This document shows, piece after piece, positions 1,108-49,209 of a stretch of DNA of 64,000 bases (position 1 is its first letter; every line of letters begins with the position of its first letter). Below the pieces are notes generated by a model. It ran no database searches. It saw only the letters and a program-made list of their open reading frames with translations, and was not told the origin of the DNA. Source of the stretch: a virus; IMG/VR virus record IMGVR_UViG_3300045135_000898, positions 17,971-81,970 of that record; one strand, given 5' to 3'. A program made the position numbers and the translations under genes.

Positions 1108-3399
1108 TTAGATCTTACAGCTTTCGCATTCGCCGTCATCGTAATCAGACTGCTCAAGATCAGGAAGATCTTCGTCAGGTGATTCGCCTGCGCCGTCATG
1201 CGTATTGTTATAATAAAGCTGTTTACCACCGTACTTGTAGAAAGTAACGATATCTTTAAGCAATTGCGACATAGGTACCTTTGAATCATCAAAGTGCTCA
1301 GGATTGTAACTAGTGTTTACACTGATACCTTGGTCAATGTACTTCTGAAGTACAGCACAAACTTTAAGATAACCATCAGGTGATGTTTGATCCCAAAGCA
1401 AATCATATTTATTTTTAAGGTGGTGGTACCCAGGAACAACCTGTGCCATTACACCGTCCTTAGACTGCTTGTATGATACCAACGCGCGAGGTGGTTCAAT
1501 ACCATTCGTACTGTTACTAATCTGAGCTGACGTTTCAGCCGGCATTAATGCCATCAGAGTAGAGTTACGAATACCAGTTTGTTTGATCTTAGCTCGTAAA
1601 CCTTCCCAATCCATACGTTCTTTATGTGGAACAAGTTCATCTACATCTTTCTTGTATGTATTATTCGGGAATATACCGCGAGCATACTTTGTCTCACGAA
1701 TTAGTCCAGGTATACCACGTTCAGCAGCCAGATCAACAGATGCTTTAATTAGATAATAAGACCATGCCTCAGCGTATTCGTCGATTGTTTCAAGAGCGCC
1801 ATCATCATATTTAAGACCGCGTTTCGCCAAGAAGTAAGCTAGGTTAATAATACCTACACCTAATGGACGACGTCCCATTGTTGAAATCTCAGCTGCTTTA
1901 ACTGGATACGCTTGGTAATCCAATAGCGCATCTAGAGCTCGTACAGCAATGTTACAGTACTTTTCAAATTCTGACGGATGGTTAATGACACCCCAGTTAA
2001 TTGCCGACAACGTACATAGAGAGATCTCGCCTTCAGAATCATCAACAGAAGATAGAGGTTTTGTGGGTAAGTCAATTTCACAACATAGGTTAGACTGTTT
2101 AATTGGAGCAAGACTTTCAATGAATGAGCCATGTGTATTAGCGTGGTCTACGTTCATTAGGTAAATACGACCAGTGTCTTTACGTTCCTGTAAGAATGAA
2201 CTAAACACTTCCATAGCAGGTAAAGTCTTCTTACGAATATTCTTATCTGCTTCGTACTTTTCGTACAGACGTTTAAATTCATCTTGGTCAGCATAAAACG
2301 CATCCATAAGACCAGGAACATCATTAGGACTAAACAGTGTAATGTTACCACCCGTTAGTAGACGTTCGTACATTGTCTTATTGAATTGGAATGCATAGTC
2401 CATGTGGCGTACACGGTTTTCTTCAGTGCCTTTGTTATTTTTCAGTACAACAAGGTTTTCAAACTCAAGATGCCAAACTGGAAGGTAAATTGTAGCTGCA
2501 CCGCCCCTTACACCACCCTGTGAGCAGGATTTGACCGCCGCTTGGAAATATTTGAGGAAAGGTATAAGTCCCGTGTGTACAACTGATCCATCGCCGACTC
2601 TAGACCCTTCAGCTCGGATCGAACCTGCTCCAATTCCGATGCCAGCTTTCTTAGAGATATAACGAACCACAGAAGAGGCAGTTGAATTAATAGAATCAAG
2701 AGTATCACCGGATTCAATAAGCACGCAAGAACTAAACTGGCGAGTGGGAGTTCGTACACCGGCCATAATAGGTGTTGGTAGACTAATAGCGAAGTTGGAT
2801 ACCGCATCATAAAAGTCCTTTACATAATTTAAACGAGTTTCGGTTGGATAGTTACCAAATAAGGTAGCACCAATCATCATATAAGCAATTTGCGGAGTTT
2901 CATAGATTTTTTTAGTAGAACGGTCTTGTACAAGGTATTTACCTCGGAACTGTTCCATCGCTACATATGTGAAGCTGTCGTCACGAGAATGCTTGATATA
3001 AGCATCTAATTCATTTAACTCTTCTTCAGTGTATGTAGTAAGAATATCAGCATCGTATACGCCAAAATCAACGTTTGTTTTAATCACATCAATTAAAGGT
3101 AATGGCGTGTATTGCTGGTAAACCTCTTTACGAAGTTTGTAGTTTACCAAACGAGCTGCAACATATTGATAGTTCGGAGTATTCTCAGAAATCAGTTCAG
3201 CTGCTGACTTAATCAACAATTCGTGGATATCATCAGATGAAATTTTATCGTATAGCTGAATGTTAGCACGCATTTCAATCTCTGAAATAGAGACGCCATT
3301 AATACCTTCGGTGGCCCACTCTAGGACTCGATGTACTTTATCTAGGTCGAACGGCTCAAGAGATCCTTTGCGTTTGGTTATCTTGATGGTTTTGATCAT
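1108..3399 (-). CDS. nrdA: ribonucleotide reductase class Ia alpha subunit with ATP cone
   Basis: ITKRKG ATP cone, PTPIM, QFSSCVL, QSNLCCEI, LMPAETS, C-terminal CESCKI. Confidence 0.98.
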   Translation of the reverse strand: MIKTIKITKRKGSLEPFDLDKVHRVLEWATEGINGVSISEIEMRANIQLYDKISSDDIHELLIKSAAELISENTPNYQYVAARLVNYKLRKEVYQQYTPLPLIDVIKTNVDFGVYDADILTTYTEEELNELDAYIKHSRDDSFTYVAMEQFRGKYLVQDRSTKKIYETPQIAYMMIGATLFGNYPTETRLNYVKDFYDAVSNFAISLPTPIMAGVRTPTRQFSSCVLIESGDTLDSINSTASSVVRYISKKAGIGIGAGSIRAEGSRVGDGSVVHTGLIPFLKYFQAAVKSCSQGGVRGGAATIYLPVWHLEFENLVVLKNNKGTEENRVRHMDYAFQFNKTMYERLLTGGNITLFSPNDVPGLMDAFYADQDEFKRLYEKYEADKNIRKKTLPAMEVFSSFLQERKDTGRIYLMNVDHANTHGSFIESLAPIKQSNLCCEIDLPTKPLSSVDDSEGEISLCTLSAINWGVINHPSEFEKYCNIAVRALDALLDYQAYPVKAAEISTMGRRPLGVGIINLAYFLAKRGLKYDDGALETIDEYAEAWSYYLIKASVDLAAERGIPGLIRETKYARGIFPNNTYKKDVDELVPHKERMDWEGLRAKIKQTGIRNSTLMALMPAETSAQISNSTNGIEPPRALVSYKQSKDGVMAQVVPGYHHLKNKYDLLWDQTSPDGYLKVCAVLQKYIDQGISVNTSYNPEHFDDSKVPMSQLLKDIVTFYKYGGKQLYYNNTHDGAGESPDEDLPDLEQSDYDDGECESCKI

Positions 3400-3436: not shown

Positions 3437-3465
3437 ATTATATATCATTAGCACTTCGATGTAAA
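3437..3465 (-). promoter_or_regulatory. early promoter for nrdA
   Basis: TTTACA-17-TATAAT. Confidence 0.85.
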
Positions 3466-3498
3466 TAGCCTTGGTGCATAAAAATGTAAAAAAACATA

Positions 3499-3558
3499 TT
3501 TACATCTGAAGAAAAGTGTGGTATAATAGATTAACGATCTGGGGGAAGGTAGATATAC
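3499..3558 (+). repeat. plus-strand promoter with 37-bp repeat, copy 1 (TATAATAGATTAACGATCTGGGGGAAGGTAGATATAC)
   Basis: TTTACA 3499-3504, TATAAT 3522-3527; 3522-3558 identical to 46245-46281. Confidence 0.9.
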
Positions 3559-3560
3559 CT

Positions 3561-3917
3561 TTATTCAGGCTTTACAGCCTCTTCGTAATAAAGTATAATT
3601 TCCTTTTGTTGTTCAATGTAACGACGCAGCTCAGCGAAGTTAAGAGATAGGTTTTCGTAGTCTTTAATTGAAATAGCAATGTAGACACGGTCGCCGTTTT
3701 TATCTTCGAACTCAGTAATGAACTCTTCGTAATTATCTTTTGTAACAACGTAGATCTTAACTCGATTGAGTTGAGCTTGTTTGGGTCTAGCTACAATTGG
3801 AACTTCAGTCTTTACAGTGTTAGTTACTGTTACTATCTTCGGTTCCGGTATCAGGCTGCTGCACCCCATTAGGGTTAGTGATGTCAGCAAGATCAGTCCA
3901 TAATTCATCAGTCGCAT
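3561..3917 (-). CDS. outer-membrane spanin (Rz1-like lipoprotein)
   Basis: Signal peptide with lipobox LMGC; overlaps 3' end of upstream TM/coiled-coil gene. Confidence 0.75.
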   Translation of the reverse strand: MRLMNYGLILLTSLTLMGCSSLIPEPKIVTVTNTVKTEVPIVARPKQAQLNRVKIYVVTKDNYEEFITEFEDKNGDRVYIAISIKDYENLSLNFAELRRYIEQQKEIILYYEEAVKPE

Positions 3918-4239
3918 TTTGCATTCTCTTTTCAATTAATCCTGGCTTCTTAAGAGCAAGCTGAGTTAAGTTATGCTTTTGTAGTGTGTTCCTTAACTCA
4001 TCGCCGTATTGTTCAGCCTTTTGTAAATCAGCGGAAAGCTGTAGGTTCATCTCATTAAGACGTTTAGTTTCAGATTCCATTAGCCTTAACGAGTCTTCAC
4101 TCAGTTTCACTGCGGTTTCCATCTTGGCGACATTTGCTCTTGCAGTTTCAAGATCGGACTGCAACTTGGTGACATACCAATAGCCACCAGCTGCTGCAGT
4201 AAGAACCGCAGTGATAATCATAATTCTAATATACATCAT
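3820..4239 (-). CDS. inner-membrane spanin (Rz-like)
   Basis: N-terminal TM helix then long coiled coil; overlapped by lipoprotein gene. Confidence 0.75.
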   Translation of the reverse strand: MMYIRIMIITAVLTAAAGGYWYVTKLQSDLETARANVAKMETAVKLSEDSLRLMESETKRLNEMNLQLSADLQKAEQYGDELRNTLQKHNLTQLALKKPGLIEKRMQNATDELWTDLADITNPNGVQQPDTGTEDSNSN

Positions 4240-6321: not shown

Positions 6322-6329
6322 TATTTATA
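6322..6329 (-). promoter_or_regulatory. T4-type late promoter (gp55), with hairpin 6293-6322
   Basis: TATAAATA. Confidence 0.75.
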
Positions 6330-36705: not shown

Positions 36706-36781
36706 TGGTGCCGGCACCAAGAGTCGAACTCGGGACATCTTCATTACAAGTGAAGCGCTCTACCTACTGAGCTATACCGGC
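36706..36781 (-). tRNA. tRNA-Thr(UGU)
   Basis: GCCGGTA..AGCTCAG..GG..anticodon loop CTTGTAA..GTTCGA..CCA, 76 nt. Confidence 0.95.
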
Positions 36782-36913: not shown

Positions 36914-36989
36914 TGGCTCCTCGACCTGGACTCGAACCAGGGACCAATAGATTAACAGTCTACTGCTCTACCAACTGAGCTATCGAGGA
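36914..36989 (-). tRNA. tRNA-Asn(GUU)
   Basis: TCCTCGA..AGCTCAGTTGG..loop CTGTTAA..GGTTCGA..CCA, 76 nt. Confidence 0.95.
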
Positions 36990-44478: not shown

Positions 44479-45539
44479 TATGCAATCTCCATATTTGACG
44501 CTTCAGTAAATAACGTACGCATTAGTACTTTCATCTTATCTTTATCAAGGTCAGTCTCAACAGCCTCAACGTAAGAATCAAGCAACGATGGCGTATCCTC
44601 TACCGAGATACTTTCATCTTCAACGTTTTCGCCCAAGAACTCAGAAAAAGTTTCAGCAATTTTCAATTCATGAGTATCAACATTTTGTAAGCGGTCAATA
44701 AACTTATCAAAAGAATACGGATCCGACTTCTTAACAACAACCACCTTAACGAATTTGTCTTTAACTGATTCAACGTCGTATGTACTATAATCGTTTTCTT
44801 CGTCGTTGTAAACAATCTTTTCAAACATAGTGATTGGATTGCGTACAGGAGTCAATTCACGTGTTTCAGTATCAAAAACATGGAAGTACTTAGGGTCGTC
44901 AGCATCAGCCCAGGTAAATTCCATTTGAGATCCAAGGTAGCGAATGTTGCCTTCTTCAGATGCAGTGTGGAAATGACCTGACCAAACATGCTCAAATCTT
45001 GATAGTACGCTTGCATCCATGCCGTGCATGTTCTTAACGCCTTTCATAAGATCAAACCCAGCAAGCTCAAAGTGGCCACCAAGAATTGACGCCTTACAGT
45101 TTTTAAGGAACTTCATGGAGTCGGTATAGTTCTCATTATTGATCCAAGGAATAAGAGCAATTGAACAACCATCGTAATCCATTACTCGTGGTTCCATAAT
45201 AATGTTAACATTGCCTGTGTAATAACCAAGTAGCTCTTTAAGCGAACATAAATCATTAGTGTTTTTGTAAAATACGTCATGGTTACCTGGGATAATATCC
45301 ATGGTAATACCTTCACGTTTTAGTACGTCAAGAAACACTTTACGGTTATGGTTCAATGCTTTAAAGTTTACATATTTACGATGTTCATAATAATCGCCCA
45401 GGTGGATAATGGTTTTGATACCATGTTCCTTTAGGTATGGAAAGAAGACATCCGAATAAAACGCCTCCTGATAGTTCATAAACACTTCAGAGCTGTTACG
45501 TGCTCCACAGTGAGTATCATTCAAAATCGCAATTTTCAT
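44478..45539 (-). CDS. 47: recombination nuclease subunit gp47 (Mre11-like)
   Basis: DTHCG, HLGD, GNHD, SGHFH. Confidence 0.97.
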   Translation of the reverse strand: MKIAILNDTHCGARNSSEVFMNYQEAFYSDVFFPYLKEHGIKTIIHLGDYYEHRKYVNFKALNHNRKVFLDVLKREGITMDIIPGNHDVFYKNTNDLCSLKELLGYYTGNVNIIMEPRVMDYDGCSIALIPWINNENYTDSMKFLKNCKASILGGHFELAGFDLMKGVKNMHGMDASVLSRFEHVWSGHFHTASEEGNIRYLGSQMEFTWADADDPKYFHVFDTETRELTPVRNPITMFEKIVYNDEENDYSTYDVESVKDKFVKVVVVKKSDPYSFDKFIDRLQNVDTHELKIAETFSEFLGENVEDESISVEDTPSLLDSYVEAVETDLDKDKMKVLMRTLFTEASNMEIA

Positions 45540-46126
45540 TAACCAAGTTCTCCAAAGAACAACTCAAGACCTTCTGGGTTGCTCTTATCTTCTTTCTTTT
45601 CGTATTTAGCGAATTCTTTAATTACACGGTCTTGGTCGTGTACTCGTTCAATGCGTGATCTCAATTCATCGACAAATGCGTATTCATCACCTGCTTCATA
45701 TCCATTTTCATCTTGGACTGTAAAGAAGTCTTCGTATCCACCTTTCTCAATGAATTTAAATTTTACGTCCTGCTGTTTCTTTTCCTTTTGGATTCGACGT
45801 AAGAACGCGTAATATGAGATCTGCGTAAAATACGCAAATGCATTTGGTAGACCAGTACGAGTTGCCTTCTCAATGTCATAGTTCATGATTGCCTTAAGAC
45901 TATTTTCAACAGCATCCATCACCATCTCTTCACGGTATGTGTACCTAATGAAGTTAGACTTGTATGATAGACCTTCTGCAATCTTAAGAAAACACTCAGC
46001 TATGTAATCTGGAATGATAGGAACAACTTCGTCTTTATCTTTAGCTTCGTTGACTGACTTGACGTAATCGCAAACTGCCAATGAGAACTCTTTATTGTTG
46101 ACGTAATGTGGTTTATCTTTTGCCAT
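45539..46126 (-). CDS. 55: late sigma factor gp55
   Basis: HYVNNKEF, KIAEGLS.K.NF..YTYREEM..DA.E, NAFAYFTQI.YYAF.RRI.KEK. Confidence 0.96.
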   Translation of the reverse strand: MAKDKPHYVNNKEFSLAVCDYVKSVNEAKDKDEVVPIIPDYIAECFLKIAEGLSYKSNFIRYTYREEMVMDAVENSLKAIMNYDIEKATRTGLPNAFAYFTQISYYAFLRRIQKEKKQQDVKFKFIEKGGYEDFFTVQDENGYEAGDEYAFVDELRSRIERVHDQDRVIKEFAKYEKKEDKSNPEGLELFFGELG

Positions 46127-46159: not shown

Positions 46160-46188
46160 ATTATACTATAGTCTTCGCTAAATGTAAA
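46160..46188 (-). promoter_or_regulatory. early promoter for gene 55
   Basis: TTTACA-17-TATAAT. Confidence 0.85.
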
Positions 46189-46221
46189 TAGAAAAAAGTT
46201 AAAAAAATATGAAAAAAACTA

Positions 46222-46281
46222 TTTACATAATGATGTTTATGTGTTATAATAGATTAACGATCTGGGGGAAGGTAGATATAC
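46222..46281 (+). repeat. plus-strand promoter with 37-bp repeat, copy 2
   Basis: TTTACA 46222-46227, TATAAT 46245-46250; identical to 3522-3558; followed by hairpin ATGGCC-GAA-GGCCAT. Confidence 0.9.
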
Positions 46282-46309
46282 AACCAAAGGTATGGCCGAA
46301 GGCCATTTA

Positions 46310-46696
46310 TTAGTGTATAGTAGTATCGGTATTTGGAGTGTCAGGAATAGGATCTTCTTCAGGTTCTAATTTATCTATATCCTGTTGAGCAAGCGAGATT
46401 AACGCTTTAAGGTATTGTTCCTTTGCGTCTAATTCAAGTGTAGCGAATGCAACGATGTTGGACTTTTGAATGGACACCAAATTACGAACAGCCATTGGCA
46501 TCCATTCTTTAAACGTGTACGTGAACAAACCATCTTCAGTAGCGTACTCTCGTAGAGCCAAAGGCTCTTCAATTAGCATAACTGATTCATCTGTCTTATT
46601 ACGATTAATGATAGCAAAGACTTCATCTCCACTTGTGAGCTTAAGGTGCATTACCTTTAAAGCCTTTGCCTCTTCACGTATCAGTTCATCACTCAT
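46310..46696 (-). CDS. Sm-like fold hypothetical protein
   Basis: LKLTSGDEVFA...IEEPL...WMPM pattern, similar to 31382-31669. Confidence 0.65.
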   Translation of the reverse strand: MSDELIREEAKALKVMHLKLTSGDEVFAIINRNKTDESVMLIEEPLALREYATEDGLFTYTFKEWMPMAVRNLVSIQKSNIVAFATLELDAKEQYLKALISLAQQDIDKLEPEEDPIPDTPNTDTTIH

Positions 46697-48195
46697 ATAT
46701 CAATCTCAAAAATTTTATATCTGAACTTCTCTCTACTATATATCTTGATCCTTTCGGCTGCATGGTTCAAGGTATAGTTCTTTTTCTTTCGCCAATGGAA
46801 GTCATCAGCAATATCGTACAGTTTTGTTGTACGGTTATCATCTGACTTACGAAGACCTCGACCGATACTTTGAAGGATCTTGATCTGCGATTTTGACGGA
46901 GATGCAAATATAATATTATGTAGGTTCTTAATATTTATCCCTGTACTAAACGTACCGAGTGACGCTACAATAATTGCATTCTTTTCTTTTTCAGTAATCT
47001 TACGAACCGCTTCTCGAGTATCAACATCGGTTGCACCCGATACAAAAAATACCTTACGGCGATGATGCGCCTTTTCAAGTATTAAATCGTATAATGGTTT
47101 ACCGTGCTTCTCAACGAATTGGAATAACACAAGAGTATTACCGTCTTGGTCCAAAGCAAGATTACGAATGAAGTTATTTCGTTTTTGATGTTTAACGATA
47201 AAATCAACTTCATCTTGGTATTTCATTTTTACGACATTCTGACAAGTAACATCATCATACTTCATTAGTAGTACACTAATCTCAAGATCAGACAACGCAC
47301 CGCTATCCATAAGATCTTTTGTTGATGTAACTTTATATGATGGACCAAAATGTCCTTCCAATACTAATTTGTGTACCTGCGATCCATCGAGAGTACCTGT
47401 TGTACCAAATCGATATTCTGCTTCTTTACACTTACTTAGTATTGATGTTAATGATTTCGCTTTAAAGTTATGAGCTTCATCACCAATAACCATGCCAAAC
47501 TGCTCAAACCATGGAGTGTGCAATTTGTATATTGACTGCCATGTTGTAATTACGATCTTTTCTTCTTTCGCAATTTTAGGCTGTCCTGCGTAAATCATAT
47601 GACATAATTTACCCGCATCGAATCCATCGTCATGTTCGGAGTAATCAGCAAAGTCTCCGTACATCTGCTTAACTAACGACGTAGTCGGTACTACAAGCAA
47701 GATCTTCTTATTAGGATGCTTATCCAGAAAGTACCTTACCAAAGAGTAAATGATAAACGATTTACCCGACGCGGTTGGACTAATCAGTAGAGCACGTTTA
47801 TTACTAATACCATGATGAATGGCATCTAACTGATAGTCACGGTGTTCAATAGGTTCGCCTCTTGACGTAAAGGTACAATCATTAAGATAGTCAAGATTTA
47901 CGATACCTGTCTGAGATTCAGGAACCCCATAGTAATTATCGTGCTCAATTTCTATATCGTACTGACGAGCATTGGCGAATTCCTGAAGGTACTTAAAGAG
48001 TCCACCTGGGAGCTCTCTTTCACGGCTGTTCCATAACCGTATTTTGCCATCCCACATTTTATTCTTATATGCAGGATGGAACTGATAGCCTTCAGCATAA
48101 AAACAAAAGAAGTCCATCAATTCATTAGAGATGCCTGGGTCAGCATCAATATGCAAAAACGCGTGGTTCTTTTTACGAACCTTTATTGTATCCAT
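46693..48195 (-). CDS. uvsW: UvsW SF2 helicase
   Basis: SPTASGKS, GDEAH, GTTGT, FSTGINI, LQSIGRGLR. Confidence 0.96.
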   Translation of the reverse strand: MDTIKVRKKNHAFLHIDADPGISNELMDFFCFYAEGYQFHPAYKNKMWDGKIRLWNSRERELPGGLFKYLQEFANARQYDIEIEHDNYYGVPESQTGIVNLDYLNDCTFTSRGEPIEHRDYQLDAIHHGISNKRALLISPTASGKSFIIYSLVRYFLDKHPNKKILLVVPTTSLVKQMYGDFADYSEHDDGFDAGKLCHMIYAGQPKIAKEEKIVITTWQSIYKLHTPWFEQFGMVIGDEAHNFKAKSLTSILSKCKEAEYRFGTTGTLDGSQVHKLVLEGHFGPSYKVTSTKDLMDSGALSDLEISVLLMKYDDVTCQNVVKMKYQDEVDFIVKHQKRNNFIRNLALDQDGNTLVLFQFVEKHGKPLYDLILEKAHHRRKVFFVSGATDVDTREAVRKITEKEKNAIIVASLGTFSTGINIKNLHNIIFASPSKSQIKILQSIGRGLRKSDDNRTTKLYDIADDFHWRKKKNYTLNHAAERIKIYSREKFRYKIFEIDI

Positions 48196-48641
48196 TATAC
48201 ACCACTTGTAAACTTCCGCCATTCGATGGCATTACGAATATTTTGGTGCCTCCACTTAATGTTCTCCATAATATCTGACAATGTATCAATCATCGTCTTC
48301 AAGTATTCAATTTTGGCTTGAGCTTCTTGGATATGTGGATCAGAATCATAATAATAATCCATCTCACCTTTCAGGACTTTAAGACCGTTCAGCGCATCAT
48401 ATTCCCAACCTAGCTCGTCGATTTGATCTTTCGACATTTTGCCATTATACCATAACCACTTATTCTTCAATAGAACTTTAAAGTCGGCTTCTCTTTTCTT
48501 CAGTTGCAATTTATATATCGAGAGTATTTCGAGGTACTTCGAGTGTAGCTTTGCAGAGTTAAGACTCGCTTCGTCTAAATTGTTTTCATCAATTCGCGAG
48601 TCTTTTTTCCACATTTCGAGGATTTCATCCAATTGTAGCAT
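48195..48641 (-). CDS. uvsY: recombination mediator UvsY
   Basis: W.KDS.ID...L.E.S....KLHSKY...IRNAIEWRKF.SG. Confidence 0.92.
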   Translation of the reverse strand: MLQLDEILEMWKKDSRIDENNLDEASLNSAKLHSKYLEILSIYKLQLKKREADFKVLLKNKWLWYNGKMSKDQIDELGWEYDALNGLKVLKGEMDYYYDSDPHIQEAQAKIEYLKTMIDTLSDIMENIKWRHQNIRNAIEWRKFTSGV

Positions 48642-49172: not shown

Positions 49173-49209
49173 AATTCTACCTCATGGTTATACCACTATT
49201 TATACACAC

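Follow-up and report, generated by a model that had tools for sequence, protein, structure and literature searches.

The window analysed here, a stretch of 64,000 nucleotides (nt) from a marine T4-like phage, the IMG/VR virus record IMGVR_UViG_3300045135_000898 (81,970 base pairs (bp) in all, judged 45% complete), contains two copies of a short element in which a promoter of the early type faces backward, against the gene flow, and leads into a 37-bp exact repeat. The repeat was found at 3522-3558, upstream of nrdA, and at 46245-46281, upstream of gene 55 (the late sigma gene), on the plus strand in both cases; none was expected from 100 shuffles, and the whole record likewise holds two. The genes around the copies were identified by PHROGs as nrdA, two spanin-like genes, gp55, gp47, a UvsW-like helicase and UvsY, all of which lie on the minus strand. 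The parts of the two copies are as follows.

3437..3465, minus strand: early promoter of nrdA, TTTACA-17-TATAAT (11/12), with the -35 box at 3465-3460 and the -10 box at 3442-3437
3466..3498, no strand: A-rich spacer between the -35 boxes of copy 1, 33 bp, 73% A+T, 16/33 A on the plus strand
3499..3527, plus strand: backward early promoter of copy 1, TTTACA-17-TATAAT, 11/12 consensus, TGn at 3519-3521
3522..3558, plus strand: 37-bp repeat, copy 1, made up of the -10 hexamer and the leader; model score 23.2 bits
Within copy 1, plus strand: probable start at ~3533-3535, as judged from spacing; purine tract at 3541-3549; TATAC at 3554-3558
3571..3599, plus strand: third match to TTTACA-17-TATAAT, without TGn and not part of the repeat
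46160..46188, minus strand: early promoter of gene 55, TTTACA-17-TATAAT
46189..46221, no strand: A-rich spacer between the -35 boxes of copy 2, 33 bp, 88% A+T, 23/33 A
46222..46250, plus strand: backward early promoter of copy 2, TTTACA-17-TATAAT, 11/12, TGn at 46242-46244
46245..46281, plus strand: 37-bp repeat, copy 2, at the ancestral gene-55 site; model score 21.2 bits
Within copy 2, plus strand: likely start at ~46256-46258; purine tract at 46264-46272; TATAC at 46277-46281

Each backward promoter is paired, back-to-back, with a TTTACA-17-TATAAT promoter on the minus strand (3465-3437 for nrdA, 46188-46160 for gene 55). The 17-bp promoter spacers differ between the copies; identity runs from the -10 hexamer to TATAC, and the right flanks are 10% identical in an ungapped comparison. 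This arrangement had been described from the letters alone in an earlier account (the sequence-only reading), and we found the two promoters, the repeat, the paired minus-strand promoters, the 33 A-rich bp between the -35 boxes and the differing spacers as that account had placed them. Its statement that these were the only two plus-strand promoters of the kind was mistaken, because the third match at 3571-3599 lies 72 bp downstream of copy 1, within the 3' end of an o-spanin-like open reading frame (ORF); this match may be due to chance or may be a tandem backward promoter. In the record as a whole, the promoter pattern gave 26 minus-strand and 4 plus-strand matches. No credible plus-strand ORF was found after either copy, which agrees with the earlier view that no plus-strand gene follows.

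Both copies possess the hexamers, the 17-bp spacer, the TGn extension and the A/T-rich upstream DNA of T4-type early (sigma-70) promoters, and the TGn extension and UP-like A/T-rich upstream DNA are described as T4 early promoter features in an excerpt of PMC2988021. In consensus quality the backward promoters equal the phage's own early promoters. The sense (minus-strand) early promoters of the record share an extended consensus past the -10 box, namely TATAATAG followed by A or C, TC, T or C, and ATCAAAT..., as well as an extended -35 region, CTATTTACAT. Since the repeat opens with ten bases (TATAATAGAT) of generic early-promoter consensus, the element-specific part amounts to only ~27 nt. 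As a separate observation, the long sense-promoter consensus of the record resembles the PeSL-type shuffling cassettes of other T4-type phages.

Conservation was assessed in a comparison set of 80 gp55 loci from IMG/VR contigs (442 kb; gp55 59-71% identical in amino acids), by using a sequence-only model of 23 aligned elements (A1 and R1). The model matched 55 of the 80 loci, once in each, always upstream of gp55 and on the opposite strand, and no other match at E<=1 was obtained in the 442 kb; 21 of the matched loci had supplied training sequences. The strict promoter pattern by itself gave 71 distinct matches in the 80 loci, 13 of which were antisense and within 250 nt upstream of gp55, and TATAC followed the -10 box by 19-29 nt in 11 of these 13 versus 0 of the 58 other promoters. 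Neither TATAC nor a G run occurred at that position among the sense promoters of the record itself (0/25). When the model was applied to the window, only the two copies scored, with the next match at 8.5 bits. What relatives keep is the promoter, a purine tract resembling a Shine-Dalgarno sequence, and a TATAC placed ~25 nt beyond the -10 box. Among the 25 loci without a model match, two have less than 115 nt of upstream DNA, L053 and L054 carry the element by pattern, and L041, L045, L058, L072, L076, L080 and L081 show, by eye, a promoter with a variant motif; no backward promoter was seen by eye in L029-L037, L066, L067 and L070, and L064 and L078 were not inspected individually. In two large relatives (records G003 and G002, with loci L085/L088 and L086/L089, respectively), the TATACCTAATG end of the gene-55-site element is tandemly duplicated.

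Close DNA relatives in the phage collection were not found by megablast, a distant search matched nrdA alone (~65%), and an exact 19-mer had no match in viral contigs. The nearest named phage is C48C1 (Kyanoviridae, complete 156-kb genome), the gp55 of which is 62% identical; it shows the synteny uvsY-helicase-hypothetical-gp55-gp47-gp46 and a single element copy at the corresponding place and strand. With its presence in C48C1 and in more than half of the gp55 loci, the element, whose conservation in relatives the sequence-only reading had left to be checked, is a real family feature of the gene-55 site in marine T4-like phages related to Kyanoviridae. The T4 genome gave no match to the model, and gene order at gene 55 differs in Vibrio phage QD01 and T4.

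The promoter arrangement extends to cyanophages. All seven that were sampled (S-RIM8, S-H9-1, S-CAM7, S-TIM4, S-RIM2, MED4-213 and S-CAM8) have the order uvsW-hypothetical-gp55, and in 7/7 a divergent sigma-70-type promoter faces back from the gp55 promoter, as judged by eye; the -35 boxes are interleaved or separated by 3-5 bp. Five of the seven, which belong to different genera (L095, L096, L187, L188 and L190), have a leader of their own, AACCATGT, with a purine tract and an GGTTCAGAG-like motif; this common leader differs from that of the element described here, and the purine tract is present in both. Where the cyanophage boxes stand back-to-back or are interleaved as TTGACA-N4-TGTCAA, the two promoters would compete.

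The distribution of the nrdA-site copy is much narrower. The element was found before nrdA in 1 of 80 nrdA loci, L098, which is also the closest (NrdA 82% identical). From its -10 box through the leader, L098 matches the gene-55-site element of L011/L184 and L185 exactly over 40 bp. The latter lie on separate contigs from a neighbouring sample, and the two sister copies may belong to one genome. Compared with ours, the sister-lineage 40-mer has 11 differences in 31 leader positions. Within each lineage, the two sites agree from the -10 region as far as TATAC, with the right flanks 10-12% identical, and the nrdA sense promoter adjoins the element, the sister -35 boxes also being 33 bp apart by hand count. 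The nrdA-site copy is lineage-specific, and the gene-55 site is the ancestral one. Identity within each lineage together with the 11/31 differences between lineages indicates that the unit from the -10 box to TATAC undergoes concerted evolution, or co-evolves with a partner. Where they gave cover, DNA contigs from four other seawater runs showed no difference within 46245-46281, and in run X7 one contig connects the repeat with the flank of copy 1, which places copy 1 in another sample as well. Both copies thus occur elsewhere in unchanged form; because contigs break at the repeat and local intergenic differences are few, these data carry little information on selection. A second, non-identical cassette copy was also noticed in the 49.6-kb record G004 (locus L087, 26222-26260), where it lies between a 117-aa ORF and a structural-protein gene and does not adjoin a back-to-back sense early promoter.

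Both copies occupy the same kind of position in the gene map, the relevant genes being as follows.

1108-3399, minus strand: nrdA ORF (PHROGs)
3561..3935, minus strand: o-spanin-like ORF, final gene of its late block (phrog_812 at 1e-15)
3820-4239, minus strand: second spanin-like gene (PHROGs)
45539-46126, minus strand: gp55 ORF (phrog_234 at 4.8e-52)
46310..46696, minus strand: orf128, final gene of its late block, downstream of uvsW (phrog_471)
46693-48222, minus strand: UvsW-like helicase (PHROGs)
48195-48641, minus strand: UvsY (PHROGs)

In the record, the late-promoter consensus TATAAATA has 19 minus-strand sites and a single plus-strand one. The block that closes with the spanin-like genes at 3561 has such a site at its head, at 6329, and another, at 49204, heads a 171-aa gene, uvsY, uvsW and orf128, a block that ends at 46310; hence both copies lie at the end of a late-type block, directly before an early operon. 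The element itself contains no TATAAATA on either strand. In T4, UvsW is expressed from a late promoter, according to an excerpt of PMC3016281. The position of orf128 between uvsW and the element is shared by C48C1 and the cyanophages. As for orf128 itself, it gave a weak Sm_like match (21.6 bits, below the cut-off of 29.4) and no solved relative by sequence (E 1.8), and its Atlas neighbours are viral hypotheticals, a minority of which are labelled Sm_like or DUF6561. The sole Rfam matches in the window at gathering thresholds are two minus-strand tRNA genes at 36709-36781 and 36917-36989.

The sequence-only reading had described the product of the two promoters as an identical G-rich hairpin RNA. 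The leader is identical, and the first 25 nt of the predicted RNA contain 36% G and 12% C; the fold is neither significant nor conserved. The AUCUG/UAGAU stem has an energy of -2.8 kcal/mol (z -1.26), with 27 of 200 shuffles folding as well; the RNA complementary to the leader gave no fold, and part of the alternative AGAU/AUCU stem falls before the likely start, as placed by the usual spacing of 6-8 nt. RNAalifold detected 0 conserved base pairs in 23 leaders, and inverted repeats in 22 leaders showed no excess over shuffles (72 vs 68.4 +/- 4.0, P 0.21). A hairpin RNA as a conserved feature was ruled out by these three results. Rfam contains no family matching the element; at E up to 5, copy 1 gave nothing and copy 2 gave one chance-level match on the opposite strand (16.5 bits vs a gathering score of 88). 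When the 25-nt leader was compared with the 82-kb record for targets in trans, the best non-self duplex (-24.4 kcal/mol) fell within the range of 15 shuffles (-23.2 to -31.7).

Pairing with the tail of 16S ribosomal RNA gave a different result. All 23 leaders beat their own shuffles (mean -7.7 vs -5.3 kcal/mol), and they paired more strongly than 23 real early-gene leaders of the phage (mean -5.3 kcal/mol), so the G-rich tract is Shine-Dalgarno-like. No ATG, GTG or TTG lies within reach of the purine tract in either copy. By hand count, ATG or GTG follows the tract in 14/21 related leaders and is the reverse of a His-stop at the C-terminus of the upstream gene, an ending seen, where read, in this phage (orf128), in the sister lineage and in the same proportion of related leaders. 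A small ORF behind the purine tract was considered and rejected as a conserved gene: open frames in relatives, as read by hand, span ~8 to 38 codons, and their start is the reversed His-stop.

The ends of the predicted transcripts differ between the copies. Copy 2 is followed by one further feature.

46292..46306, no strand: two-way terminator-like hairpin, 6-bp stem (4 of the pairs GC) followed by a T-rich tail on either strand

This hairpin could end a ~55-nt plus-strand RNA as well as the late uvsY-uvsW-orf128 transcript. After copy 1, no terminator-like site was found on the plus strand before 3756-3775, so the predicted RNA, ~240 nt long, would overlap the spanin-like ORF in antisense. 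A terminator is missing from most relatives, because their leader abuts the stop codon of the upstream gene. With respect to the hairpin loop, contigs of runs X2 and X3 have three bases at 46298-46300 reverse-complemented (GAA to TTC) with the stem kept, and the sister-lineage hairpin appears, by eye, to have its TTCG-type loop on the other strand.

From the sequence anatomy, conservation, position and concerted evolution described above, we infer that the promoter fires, and at what time, together with each functional step proposed below. Our preferred reading, to which we assign a probability of roughly 40%, is that the element is a backward early promoter cassette that gives a cis-acting antisense or boundary RNA at the late/early junction. 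Host polymerase of the sigma-70 type would fire early from the cassette and run opposite to the genes, entering the late operon that precedes the cassette at its 3' end, and the resulting RNA may pair with read-through transcripts of the late block, or polymerases may collide head-on, or both. Late genes such as uvsW could in this way be kept unexpressed early, and upstream transcription could be held back before it reaches the early promoter that follows. Binding of 30S subunits to the purine tract may stabilise the untranslated RNA. Historically, the cassette would be ancestral at the uvsY-uvsW-orf128/gene 55 junction and would have been copied before nrdA in this lineage, with the copies then kept identical. 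Early antisense silencing of late genes, one of three functions put forward by the sequence-only reading, is the one that best fits the layout, in which the copies face late-block ends; the spanin is not its specific target, since the nrdA-site copy of the sister lineage faces a different gene. Of that interpretation as a whole, the part that stands is a real and conserved promoter that runs against the gene flow and precedes no gene, and the parts not supported are the hairpin and the sponge for CsrA.

Several findings weigh against a cis-acting antisense or boundary RNA. When RNA sequencing runs were searched for the stretch, none that contains it was listed. Other late-to-early junctions of the record are without the element when the promoter and TATAAATA scans are read together, and only some relatives have TATAAATA within 3 kb upstream of gp55. 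The predicted RNA of copy 2 would stop at the orf128 stop codon with no coding overlap. The purine tract and TATAC are not needed for antisense action and are thus left unaccounted for. In addition, the gene faced at the nrdA site is spanin-like here and phrog_6637 in the sister lineage, which suggests the neighbouring promoter, and not a target gene, as the constant partner.

This last point leads to an explanation at the level of DNA, in which the divergent pair tunes the sense promoter of gene 55 or nrdA and the RNA is irrelevant, or in which positions +1 to +25 form an operator. The possible routes would be common upstream A/T DNA, polymerase competition, transcription-driven supercoiling or, for the operator, binding of a phage regulator. 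The neighbouring sense early promoter is constant at both sites and in both lineages, whereas the faced gene is not, and the interval of 33 bp between -35 boxes is found at both sites here and, by hand count, at the sister's nrdA site. Among relatives and cyanophages, -35 boxes seen by eye to be 4-5 bp apart or interleaved suggest coupled or competing use, and identity within a genome combined with divergence between lineages is the pattern of an operator/regulator pair. However, box spacing varies from ~4 to 56 bp among relatives, which means that geometry is not fixed; the strand-asymmetric Shine-Dalgarno-like leader suggests a feature at the RNA level; and the leaders contain no conserved palindrome and no candidate regulator was identified. 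We regard this explanation as unlikely.

A replication origin, as also proposed by the sequence-only reading, would involve a short G-rich RNA that persists as an R-loop, primes leading-strand synthesis in the manner of T4 oriF/oriG, and is dissolved by UvsW. A gene-less promoter with a purine-rich RNA start fits this proposal, and the element adjoins uvsY-uvsW in all relatives. According to excerpts of PMC3016281, the origins of T4 are R-loops driven by a promoter and have no particular sequence requirement; the promoter used at oriE seems to be of the early mode, and R-loops are unwound by UvsW. Moreover, only the promoter and ~25 nt are identical between the copies, which would be expected if function ended soon after initiation. 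Against it, there is no marked A+T-rich unwinding element, the downstream 50-nt windows having 58-68% A+T (31st to 84th percentile of the record), and the G content of the RNA falls to 17-23% in the 200 nt that follow the leader. In place of a MotA box, the promoter has a -35 box. The cumulative GC skew changes monotonically and does not turn at either copy, a weak and uninformative signal given that all genes are on one strand. MotA (PF09114) gave 0 matches in the record (45% complete), in the complete C48C1 genome and in two large relatives, with a T4 control at 207 bits; AsiA was not found in the same genomes, the positive control covering MotA alone. We consider an origin quite unlikely, and we are similarly doubtful of its broader form, in which the cassette would be the early-mode origin of the marine T4-like family including cyanophages, with late UvsW erasing the R-loop and switching the phage to recombination-dependent replication. 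If the origin reading were true, a second origin would have been gained before nrdA in this lineage and two primers kept identical.

It is very unlikely that the element, or at least copy 1, has no function of its own and is an inverted promoter cassette spread and homogenised by recombination of the PeSL-shuffling type. The long consensus of the sense early promoters does include the first ten bases of the repeat, the nrdA-site copy is present in a single one of 80 nrdA loci, the second copy of one relative is located elsewhere again, and recombination is known to act on promoter cassettes in T4-type phages (excerpt of PMC4122927). Nevertheless, the gene-55-site copy is kept, with specific leader features, across very divergent phages, and the copies are identical despite unrelated flanks in each of two lineages that differ from one another at a third of the leader positions.

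Known CsrA sponges carry many GGA loops each. A trans-acting small RNA or decoy, ~55 nt from copy 2 and longer from copy 1, that titrates CsrA/RsmA or 30S subunits or pairs with a distant mRNA is highly improbable, because each RNA has one purine tract, the GGA-type motif lies in no conserved loop, the hairpin, duplex and Rfam results are those given above, and most relatives are without a terminator, even though a terminator-like hairpin bounds copy 2, having two identical 5' ends would give twice the dose, 20/23 aligned leaders contain GGA (hand count), and the Shine-Dalgarno-like strength exceeds that of real leaders.

A literature search found no description of a backward promoter before gene 55, and none is mentioned in excerpts of PMC5931967 and PMC5082946; the Syn9 start-site study (Doron 2016) might hold one. 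Few viruses in the sea are more abundant than the T4-like Kyanoviridae phages and their uncultured marine relatives, whose early regulation and replication origins are largely unmapped. The element may offer a handle on the early silencing of late genes without MotA/AsiA, or on replication start sites. The homologous promoter in cultured S-TIM4, S-RIM2, S-RIM8, S-CAM7, S-CAM8, S-H9-1 and MED4-213 makes it testable in existing infection systems. A duplicate that is identical within a genome and diverged between lineages also constitutes a natural experiment, which points to the -10 hexamer through TATAC as the functional unit.

Among known systems, lambda OOP is a short non-coding RNA whose promoter faces against the gene flow beside replication genes; its sequence complements the region at the 3' end of the gene upstream, and a role as origin primer was considered at one time. 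The cassette resembles it in having a backward promoter beside replication genes and, at copy 2, a predicted RNA of similar size (~55 nt). It differs in that there is no sequence relation, conservation covers the first 25 nt, which lie outside the upstream ORF, the promoter is back-to-back with a sense promoter, two identical copies exist, and expression is a prediction. STAB-SD, a 5' stabiliser of mRNA described in Gram-positive bacteria, consists of a Shine-Dalgarno-like tract near the 5' end that starts no protein. Both copies of the cassette likewise have such a tract near the predicted 5' end without a start codon; in contrast to STAB-SD, ATG or GTG follows in two-thirds of the related leaders, and stabilisation is hypothetical here. 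T4 anti-late RNA comes from early transcription opposite late genes and is ascribed mainly to read-through, and antisense transcription of T4 gene 32 was reportedly the subject of an earlier study. The cassette shares with anti-late RNA the (predicted) early transcription of the strand opposite late genes, but has a dedicated conserved promoter and a conserved leader at a fixed syntenic site.

T4 oriF (uvsY) and oriG (34), as described in excerpts of PMC3016281, are similar in that a promoter-driven non-coding transcript lies near uvsY/uvsW and more than one site exists per genome, and UvsW is described there as a late protein that removes R-loops. The same source gives these origins MotA-dependent middle promoters and an A+T-rich unwinding element, whereas the cassette has an early promoter with -35 and -10 boxes, MotA was not found, and no marked A+T-rich element is present. 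The PeSL promoter-terminator cassettes of T4-type phages, in turn, are repeated early promoters with an extended consensus that act as recombination points (PMC4122927), and that paper does not contain the words antisense, opposite or orientation. PeSLs are co-oriented with the genes they serve, as the excerpt describes, whereas the cassette is inverted relative to all flanking genes, serves no gene, has its own leader, and shows a stem-loop at copy 2 alone. Recombination of the PeSL kind is nonetheless, by analogy, a plausible route by which the element was copied and homogenised.

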